Positions 41,196 to 42,027 of a stretch of DNA of 64,000 nucleotides are shown here, in pieces. This stretch comes from Escherichia phage phiC120. Each line of letters starts with the position of its first letter. Position 1 is the stretch's first letter. A model generated the notes under the pieces. It did no database searches, was not told where the DNA came from, and saw only the letters and a program-made list of their open reading frames with translations. The translations under genes and the position numbers were made by a program. The DNA lies in the sequence record KY703222. The stretch is one strand, 5' to 3'.

Positions 41196-41507
41196 TAAGC
41201 CTTGCGGCAACCTTGTCGGGGTTCCACCTGCTAAGGCAAGTGTTTGTACGAAACGCCGGGATTCGAACCCGGTTATTAAGCAGTTGACGCTACTCAATAT
41301 TTTTAAAAGGCCATATCTCGACCATATCCGAACGTTCCGTCAAAAACGCTACTCGGCTTACGGCAAAGATATTTCCTCGAATCGATAATTCTGTGCGCCG
41401 TTTCTGCTGTGATGTAAGGGGATATTAACGAATCATAAAGATTTATTAAGACCAGTCCTTACTCAGGGAACATCAGTCCGACGACTTGCCGGTAGCGACC
41501 CGGCTTC
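41196..41507 (-). ncRNA. Structured non-coding region with a tRNA-like T-arm/acceptor end; candidate small stable RNA(s) co-transcribed with the tRNAs
   Basis: No ORF; minus strand reads CCGGGTTCGAATCCCGG (T-arm-like, 41255..41271) followed by an acceptor-like strand, but no canonical anticodon arm; several short hairpins; terminator follows at 41168..41195. Confidence 0.3.
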
Positions 41508-41852
41508 TTATTTTGGCATATCATCAATTTGTTCTCGACGCCGACGCCATAGATTAATCGCTTCATAGGCACATTCTGCGTTTGGTATATGACGGCAATA
41601 ATATAATGATTCATGTTTCTGAAACCGATGTTGCAATGGGATTTCGTTTAAAAGGTCTTTGCGATCAAAGTATTCAAAACTAGTTAACCCGGAACGGTTT
41701 TTAATGAACTTCCAATGACCGAATTCATTTTGAACATAGATGTAATCGGCGTGTTGATAAAGTGAATTAATCAATCGGTCTGAAATAACTGTATCATGTT
41801 CGTTAAAATAAAACGTTAAATCATGAACTACTAAATAGACATTACCTTTCAT
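41508..41852 (-). CDS. Hypothetical protein (start at internal Met)
   Basis: ORF 41508..41900 would overlap tRNA-Arg; MKGNVYLVVHD start chosen. Confidence 0.4.
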   Translation of the reverse strand: MKGNVYLVVHDLTFYFNEHDTVISDRLINSLYQHADYIYVQNEFGHWKFIKNRSGLTSFEYFDRKDLLNEIPLQHRFQKHESLYYCRHIPNAECAYEAINLWRRRREQIDDMPK

Positions 41853-41870
41853 ATTTTCCTCACTTATAAT

Positions 41871-41947
41871 TGGCCGAGACAGAAGGATTCTAACCTTCAA
41901 CCTACGGATTAGAAGTCCGTTGCTCTATACAATTGAGCTATGCCTCG
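41871..41947 (-). tRNA. tRNA-Arg (anticodon UCU), CCA encoded
   Basis: Minus strand CGAGGCA-TA-GCTC...GAGC-A-ACGGA-CTTCTAA-TCCGT-AGGTT-GAAGG-TTAGAAT-CCTTC-TGTCTCG-G-CCA folds as a cloverleaf; anticodon loop CUUCUAA. Confidence 0.85.
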
Positions 41948-41953
41948 AATATA

Positions 41954-42027
41954 TGACCCAGACCAGATTCGAACTGGTAACCTTTCCCTTATGAGGGGAC
42001 TGCTGCTAACCGTTGAGCTACAGGGCC
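41954..42027 (-). tRNA. tRNA-like gene with CAU anticodon (Met or Ile2), non-canonical stems
   Basis: Minus strand GGCCCTG...ACCAG-TTCGAAT-CTGGT-CTGGGTC-A; anticodon loop CUCAUAA; one U-U mismatch in the acceptor stem and an irregular D-arm. Confidence 0.6.

Follow-up and report, generated by a model that had tools for sequence, protein, structure and literature searches.

Two tRNA genes and homologues of the T4 stable RNAs rnaD and rnaC in a probable RB69-type tRNA region of Escherichia phage phiC120

Layout of the locus

The window, a 64,000-nucleotide stretch of the sequence of Escherichia phage phiC120 (record KY703222), carries on its minus strand, in this order, a tRNA with a CAU anticodon (42027..41954) that is best read as tRNA-Ile2, a tRNA-Arg(UCU) (41947..41871), a small ORF homologous to RB69ORF150c (41852..41508), homologues of the T4 species 2 and species 1 stable RNAs, rnaD (41511..41392) and rnaC (41385..41247), a conserved small hairpin defined by folding (41242..41225) and an intrinsic terminator (41196..41167). 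Gene boundaries were set by homology; identities, conservation and covariation were computed in this analysis. The interval is very probably a T-even tRNA region of the RB69 (Mosigvirus) type, made up of two tRNAs, a small ORF, intact rnaD and rnaC and a terminator; these parts apparently form one co-transcribed minus-strand unit.

Exactly two tRNA genes, both on the minus strand, were found in the whole 64-kb window by ARAGORN and by Rfam at the gathering threshold, in agreement with a first-pass annotation of this DNA that had set two tRNAs here against the eight of T4. When the interval 41000..42200 was searched permissively against Rfam (E up to 10), no further tRNA came up; besides the two genes there were only chance-level matches, among them a sub-threshold tRNA-Sec-like match on rnaC (41340..41248; 16.6 bits, threshold 47). 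The covariance models thus added no canonical tRNA to those already recognized. The first-pass annotation had overlooked the small ORF, and had begun the RNA genes at 41196, a position that belongs to the 5' arm of the terminator hairpin.

The terminator was missed by the scan that also covered sigma-70 promoters, owing to mismatches inside its stem, and was defined by folding instead, as a hairpin (GCCCCU..AGGUUGGGGC) followed by a U6 run. Its sequence is also present 3' of rnaC in T4 and ATK47, and directly 3' of rnaD in phage dhaeg. A sigma-70 promoter scan returned 8 sites against 8.5 expected in shuffled sequence, and no promoter was identified in this way; upstream of the tRNAs, a MotA-box-like ATTTGCTTTA, a 12-nt spacer and TATTAT (42117..42090, minus strand) were picked out by eye as a candidate match to the T4 middle-promoter consensus.

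Downstream of the RNA operon are two tandem minus-strand ORFs (40659..41123 and 39970..40533) that both start with MK(S/T)YAEFLTE and look like local paralogues; the first matches phrog_2280. Alike AGGTTGGGGCTTTTT terminators flank ORF 40659..41123, the upstream one being that of the RNA operon itself (41196..41167) and the downstream one lying at 40651..40628.

The tRNA-Arg and CAU-anticodon tRNA genes

The tRNA-Arg(UCU), called by ARAGORN and scored by Rfam at 69.8 bits (RF00005; threshold 29) over model positions 1–71 of 71, is a tRNA with a regular cloverleaf in the cmscan alignment, an encoded CCA (41873..41871) and the anticodon of an AGA reader, and so is as canonical as had been proposed. 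It differs at one position from the tRNA-Arg of ATK47, and the T4 tRNA-Arg aligns poorly with it; as judged by alignment, the window gene belongs to the RB69 lineage and not to the T4 lineage. Two details were read from its sequence: the T loop (UUAGAAU) has an A at the near-universal C56 site and the D loop contains only one G (AAUUGUAUA), both of which a compensated tertiary pair, U19-A56 replacing G19-C56, would explain. The related tRNA-Arg of dhaeg has GG and C56.

The CAU tRNA lacks an encoded CCA. It was called by ARAGORN and scored by the same Rfam model at 52.4 bits, again over positions 1–71 of 71 and against the threshold of 29. The eight tRNA genes of T4 span 48.8–75.4 bits, with T4 tRNA-Ile at 53.9, and the gene therefore scores as a normal tRNA within the T4 range rather than as the irregular one first described. 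The irregularities that had been pointed out are real: the cmscan alignment places mismatches at U6·U67 in the acceptor stem and C13·C22 in the D stem, and adds G27·A43 in the anticodon stem.

As to its identity, the two pairs that E. coli TilS needs, C4-G69 and C5-G68 (PMC1635315), both occur in its acceptor stem, GGCCCUG/CUGGGUC, in combination with the CAU anticodon; A73, U12-A23, C29-G41, A37 and A38 are also present. The features of initiator tRNAs, namely C1·A72, A11-U24 and three G-C pairs at 29–31/39–41 (PMC1635315), are missing; at these places the phage tRNA shows G1-C72 and C11-G24, and its anticodon stem reads G27 U28 C29 C30 C31. Phage RB69 has a 100% identical tRNA (AY303349, 74868..74941), and the T4 gene annotated tRNA-Ile is identical at 72/74 positions (97%), as expected of an orthologue, and has all three mismatches in common with it. 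T4 tRNA-Ile accepts isoleucine and reads AUA. When compared with E. coli tRNA-Ile2 (ileX/ileY), the phage tRNA has in common the CAU anticodon, the start G1-G2-C3-C4-C5, C4-G69, C5-G68, A37, A38 and A73; the two are distant in sequence, and U6·U67, C13·C22, G27·A43 and the absent encoded CCA are features of the phage tRNA. Nolan et al. (2006; PMC1524935) regarded the CAU tRNAs of T4-like phages as putative lysidine-containing Ile tRNAs, and the record of phage Bas46 annotates the gene as a tRNA-Ile reading ATA.

The CAU slot of Mosigviruses holds either of two non-orthologous tRNAs. The window (42027..41954) and RB69 have the T4-type tRNA-Ile; in ATK47 (contig L001, 2604..2678), SHSML-52-1 and others the slot is taken by another CAU tRNA, which encodes its CCA and is 96% identical to the tRNA of the unrelated myovirus phAPEC8. 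Both alleles retain C4-G69/C5-G68. The two types look like the outcome of allele replacement by horizontal exchange.

The small ORF and rnaD

Between tRNA-Arg and rnaD lies the ORF of 114 amino acids (345 nt; 41852..41508), with a GAGG Shine-Dalgarno sequence 7 nt upstream of its ATG. It matches phrog_3355, a family of unknown function (E = 8.5e-51, PHROGs), and is annotated at the corresponding position in ATK47 and RB69; no significant match was obtained in Pfam, PDB or PADLOC. The UAA stop codon of this ORF (41510..41508) falls inside the first four nucleotides of rnaD (41511..41508), and cutting at the 5' end of rnaD would consequently strip the stop codon from the ORF mRNA. A similar overlap of stop codon and RNA has been discussed for segB and tRNA-Arg in T4 (PMC2330249).

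The non-coding stretch 41511..41197 is structured on folding. Its first part, 41511..41392, is colinear with T4 rnaD (71171..71053) and mostly identical to it, and both full-length homology and conserved structure identify it as rnaD. Its fold (-35.5 kcal/mol, z = -2.66) comprises a 5' hairpin, (G)CCGG-GUCGCUA-CCGG(C), a basal stem of 7 bp, GUCGUCG/CGGCG(C)AC, and a long, irregularly paired hairpin, whose tip varies and shows three different replacements among 19 homologues. Over the 24 pairs of the structure, 97.6% of cells in these homologues were paired and 6 pairs had compensatory change; the basal stem is invariant and hence uninformative on covariation. A tRNA-like character of rnaD, suggested by the 3' end GGCGCAC-C(A) on a 7-bp stem, was considered and rejected as unsupported: the 5' strand of that stem begins 30 nt into the RNA, and a T arm is absent.

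Structure of rnaC

The segment 41385..41247 is colinear with T4 rnaC (71046..70908) over 139 nt with very few differences. In addition to this full-length homology, it has the position of rnaC, 3' of rnaD and 5' of the conserved hairpin and terminator, and the ATK47 record labels the corresponding stretch rnaC. The two small stable RNAs of T4, which had been taken to be absent here, are therefore this non-coding stretch itself, aligned with T4 from end to end. In T4 they are late, stable RNAs whose function has been unknown for about 50 years (PMC3014915, PMC9697503, PMC12685909). Our literature searches returned neither a function nor a published tertiary structure for rnaC or rnaD, and a 2026 paper on SegB and Septu makes no link to either RNA.

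The fold of rnaC in the window has an energy of -49.6 kcal/mol (z = -4.05). For covariation, 22 distinct homologues were assembled from T4, RB69, Moon, Q7622, TG1, Kosakonia 305 (Kos305), IMG/VR contigs and one metagenome contig. The IMG/VR scan contributed contig L049; in the metagenome scan for divergent rnaC, most matches were chance ones to coding DNA of high GC content, with real diversity only from contig L093. RNAalifold and pair counting over the 22 sequences gave a four-way junction. Its acceptor stem has 7 bp (41384..41378 with 41255..41249) including two U·U, both of which become standard pairs in TG1 (U-A and C-G), and an A-U pair is replaced by G-C in half of the sequences. A long two-part arm occupies the D-arm position; it is followed by a second hairpin of 10 bp, with the loop CGUCAA in the window and C(G/A)(U/C)CAA as the consensus of the homologues, and by a canonical T arm, CCGGG-UUCGAAU-CCCGG (41272..41256). 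In these homologues, 94.6% of cells were paired, by comparison with 37–43% when the partners were slid, and 28 of the 52 pairs had compensatory change as against 5–8 in the slid controls. Across both RNAs, the slid controls gave 0–8 such pairs. The pattern shows that rnaC and rnaD are under selection for their structure and are not eroding.

Within rnaC, complementarity over 6 pairs exists between UUGACG (41343..41338), the apical loop on the long arm, and CGUCAA (41289..41284), the loop in which the second hairpin ends; the pairs are standard in 22/22 sequences. Double substitutions that retain this complementarity have occurred in two independent lineages, UUGAUG/CAUCAA in TG1 and contig L029, and UUGGCG/CGCCAA in L093, a contig that was found with a pattern constraining neither loop. 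In Kos305, L031 and L093 the loops are kept though the stem sequences of the long arm differ. A predicted intramolecular kissing loop of 6 bp within rnaC is thus fairly well supported, and rnaC can be modelled as a tRNA-shaped RNA, cloverleaf-like with a loop–loop contact. The covariation-supported kissing loop seems to be new: the searchable papers make no mention of it, although its novelty is uncertain because the older T4 literature lay outside the search.

Neither rnaC nor rnaD, whether from the window or from T4, is matched above threshold by any family in Rfam 15, the best match being the tRNA-Sec one given above. The T4 locus (L002, 2409..2672 region) yields only its eight tRNAs, and Rfam 15 thus has no rnaC or rnaD family. 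Membership of rnaC in tmRNA, YrlA or any other described class of tRNA-like RNA was also considered and was rejected, all Rfam covariance models remaining below threshold. Both the tRNA-like domain of tmRNA and the YrlA/Y-RNA-like module resemble rnaC in having an acceptor stem on a canonical T arm together with non-tRNA arms; rnaC differs from them in lacking both a tag ORF and a Ro-binding stem, and a kissing contact appears to join its two extra arms.

Distribution and comparison with RB69 and T4

The 1-kb locus matched 756 phage records, with 325 covering at least 80% of it, and all were T-even-type (Straboviridae) phages among the matches listed. The best matches were phiE142 (98%), CCU7, SF and APCEc01, most of these being RB69-like Mosigviruses. 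An ORF151c-like gene, tRNA-CAU, tRNA-Arg(UCU), a 345-nt ORF, a non-coding gap and the next ORF follow one another in this same order in RB69, ATK47 and Bas46. RB69 has two tRNAs by comparison with the eight of T4 (Nolan et al., 2006; PMC1524935), and the seemingly reduced layout of the window is thus the known RB69 layout. The corresponding RB69 region (AY303349, about 74000–74941) has the identical CAU tRNA, the same gene order and two tRNAs in total; in its record rnaD and rnaC are not annotated and the CAU tRNA is labelled 'Met', and the best overall match of the window is phiE142 rather than RB69.

In T4 (NC_000866, 70908–72530; eight tRNAs, segB, rnaD and rnaC), tRNA-Ile(CAU) is the 72/74 counterpart, and rnaD, rnaC, the small hairpin and the terminator are colinear with those of the window and for the most part identical to them. 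The Gln, Leu, Gly, Pro, Ser and Thr tRNAs of T4 and its segB are absent from the window, a difference in tRNAs that may reflect a loss of six here or a gain in T4. The T4 tRNA-Arg, which is of another sequence lineage, lies 1–2 nt from rnaD, whereas the window has the ORF between them; more generally, rnaD starts 1–3 nt after the CCA of tRNA-Arg in T4 and dhaeg, and an ORF is inserted at this point in the window, RB69 and VR20.

Homologues of rnaD and rnaC were found in 791 phage records. Kanagawavirus, Moonvirus and Tegunavirus have rnaC without rnaD; the reverse holds for VR20 (Gaprivervirus, L010) and dhaeg (Dhakavirus, L011). In dhaeg (L011, 595..760) rnaC is cleanly missing, and rnaD abuts the hairpin that is normally 3' of rnaC. 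The two RNAs are therefore separable modules. Among the Tevenvirinae genera sampled, several carry rnaC inside phage tRNA arrays, within a few nt of tRNAs on both sides in Moon and L049 and on one side in Q7622 and TG1, a placement that fits processing by the tRNA machinery.

Processing and decoding

By analogy with T4 and E. coli biology, host tRNA-processing enzymes would cut the minus-strand precursor into its parts, with RNase P cleaving the 5' ends of both tRNAs and of the tRNA-shaped rnaC. The tRNA top half presumably makes rnaC a substrate of tRNA end-processing enzymes. As the CAU tRNA has no encoded CCA, it would be completed by 3' trimming and the CCA-adding enzyme, and host TilS would then turn its C34 into lysidine. 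A lysidine at this position would lead IleRS to charge the tRNA with isoleucine, and AUA to be read; both the modification and the charging are proposed on the strength of T4 homology and the identity elements. Together, tRNA-Ile2 (AUA) and tRNA-Arg(UCU) (AGA) could supply decoders for two codons seldom used by E. coli.

Codons were counted in 72 crudely called ORFs of the window and, with the same ORF calling, in a single 50-kb region of E. coli K-12. AUA occurred 12.5 times per 1000 codons in the window ORFs versus 4.0 in the E. coli sample, and AGA 8.0 versus 3.1 times; the two codons were about 3 times commoner in the window ORFs. This enrichment fits codon supply by the two tRNAs.

Alternative readings of the tRNAs and of the non-coding stretch

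An elongator tRNA-Met serving extra AUG decoding is what the CAU tRNA would be according to ARAGORN, which labels it 'tRNA-Met', and according to the records of RB69, ATK47 and most GenBank entries among the matches listed. Callers that consider only the anticodon cannot separate Met from Ile2, and this identity is very unlikely given that the gene is 97% identical to a T4 gene annotated tRNA-Ile and carries C4-G69/C5-G68, unlike E. coli elongator tRNA-Met, which has U4-A69/A5-U68; furthermore, AUG occurs 24.1 times per 1000 codons in phage and host alike, which indicates no extra AUG demand. The first-pass annotation had weighed a lysidine-modified Ile2 isoacceptor against a decaying gene. 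Decay would make the three non-Watson–Crick pairs marks of lost function, and the bare sequence does fold no better than its shuffles (MFE z = -0.41); this reading can nevertheless be practically dismissed, as the identical mismatches are present in T4 tRNA-Ile, copies at least 95% identical are found in 118 phage records, the Rfam score is close to that of the T4 gene, and the register of the acceptor stem is kept in relatives, position 6-67 being U-A in ATK47 and U·G in VR20. The identity with RB69 and T4, shared mismatches included, and the TilS pairs together argue that the CAU tRNA is a conserved, AUA-reading tRNA-Ile2 and not a pseudogene, so that the first of the two earlier options stands and the second does not. 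Why both tRNAs are kept is a separate matter. In T4 relatives other than T4, tRNA content is only weakly correlated with codon bias (Nolan et al.; PMC1524935), and codon supply may thus not be the whole reason. That the pair is retained mainly as spares for tRNAs cleaved or depleted by host defences would accord with codon bias being a poor predictor of tRNA content in these phages (PMC1524935), and with the finding that Septu cleaves tRNA-Tyr and is overcome by a phage-encoded tRNA-Tyr (PMC13096335). We consider this rather unlikely as the main reason, given the clear enrichment of AUA and AGA in the window ORFs and since the material examined links no nuclease specific for tRNA-Ile2 or tRNA-Arg(UCU) to these phages; codon supply and a role as spares are compatible and not mutually exclusive.

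The stretch of about 300 nt downstream had been described as structured, with a T arm and an acceptor-like stem, and as a tRNA remnant; the description holds and the remnant does not. That it consists of functionless, eroded tRNA genes from a larger T4-like cluster might be suggested by the perfect T arm and acceptor-like stem, by the weak tRNA-Sec-like match and by 95-nt tRNA calls of ARAGORN in some homologues. This reading is extremely improbable in view of the colinearity with T4 rnaD and rnaC, which accumulate as RNAs in T4 infection on Northern blots (PMC9697503), and of the compensatory changes in 28/52 rnaC and 6/24 rnaD pairs against 0–8 in slid controls; a tRNA gene may all the same be the distant ancestor of rnaC. 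As to what an intact, tRNA-shaped rnaC might do, its acceptor stem and T arm, as modelled, would engage tRNA-handling enzymes, and its two extra arms are apparently locked by UUGACG/CGUCAA, leaving no free anticodon-like loop. A dedicated tRNA mimic, acting late as a decoy or titrator of a host or phage tRNA-recognising protein, is conceivable but doubtful and the decoy role speculative; candidate targets could include defence nucleases directed at tRNA and enzymes of processing or repair.

Consequences for annotation

The two-tRNA layout and the Ile2 reading are already published, and given the published RB69 layout the finding at the locus itself is known. What follows for annotation is that the CAU tRNA should be corrected from tRNA-Met to tRNA-Ile2, and that rnaD and rnaC deserve annotation in Mosigvirus genomes; in most of the records inspected they are blank or overlaid by 'hypothetical protein' calls. 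The covariation of rnaC provides a testable structure, cloverleaf-like with a loop–loop contact, and the alignments of rnaC and rnaD could seed two new Rfam families. The 95-nt ARAGORN calls cover the 3' two-thirds of some rnaC homologues as 'tRNA-Met' or 'tRNA-Phe' (L049, 8491..8585; L012, 7816..7911), and such partial calls of rnaC are likely to have introduced spurious long tRNAs into the annotation of T4-like phage genomes.
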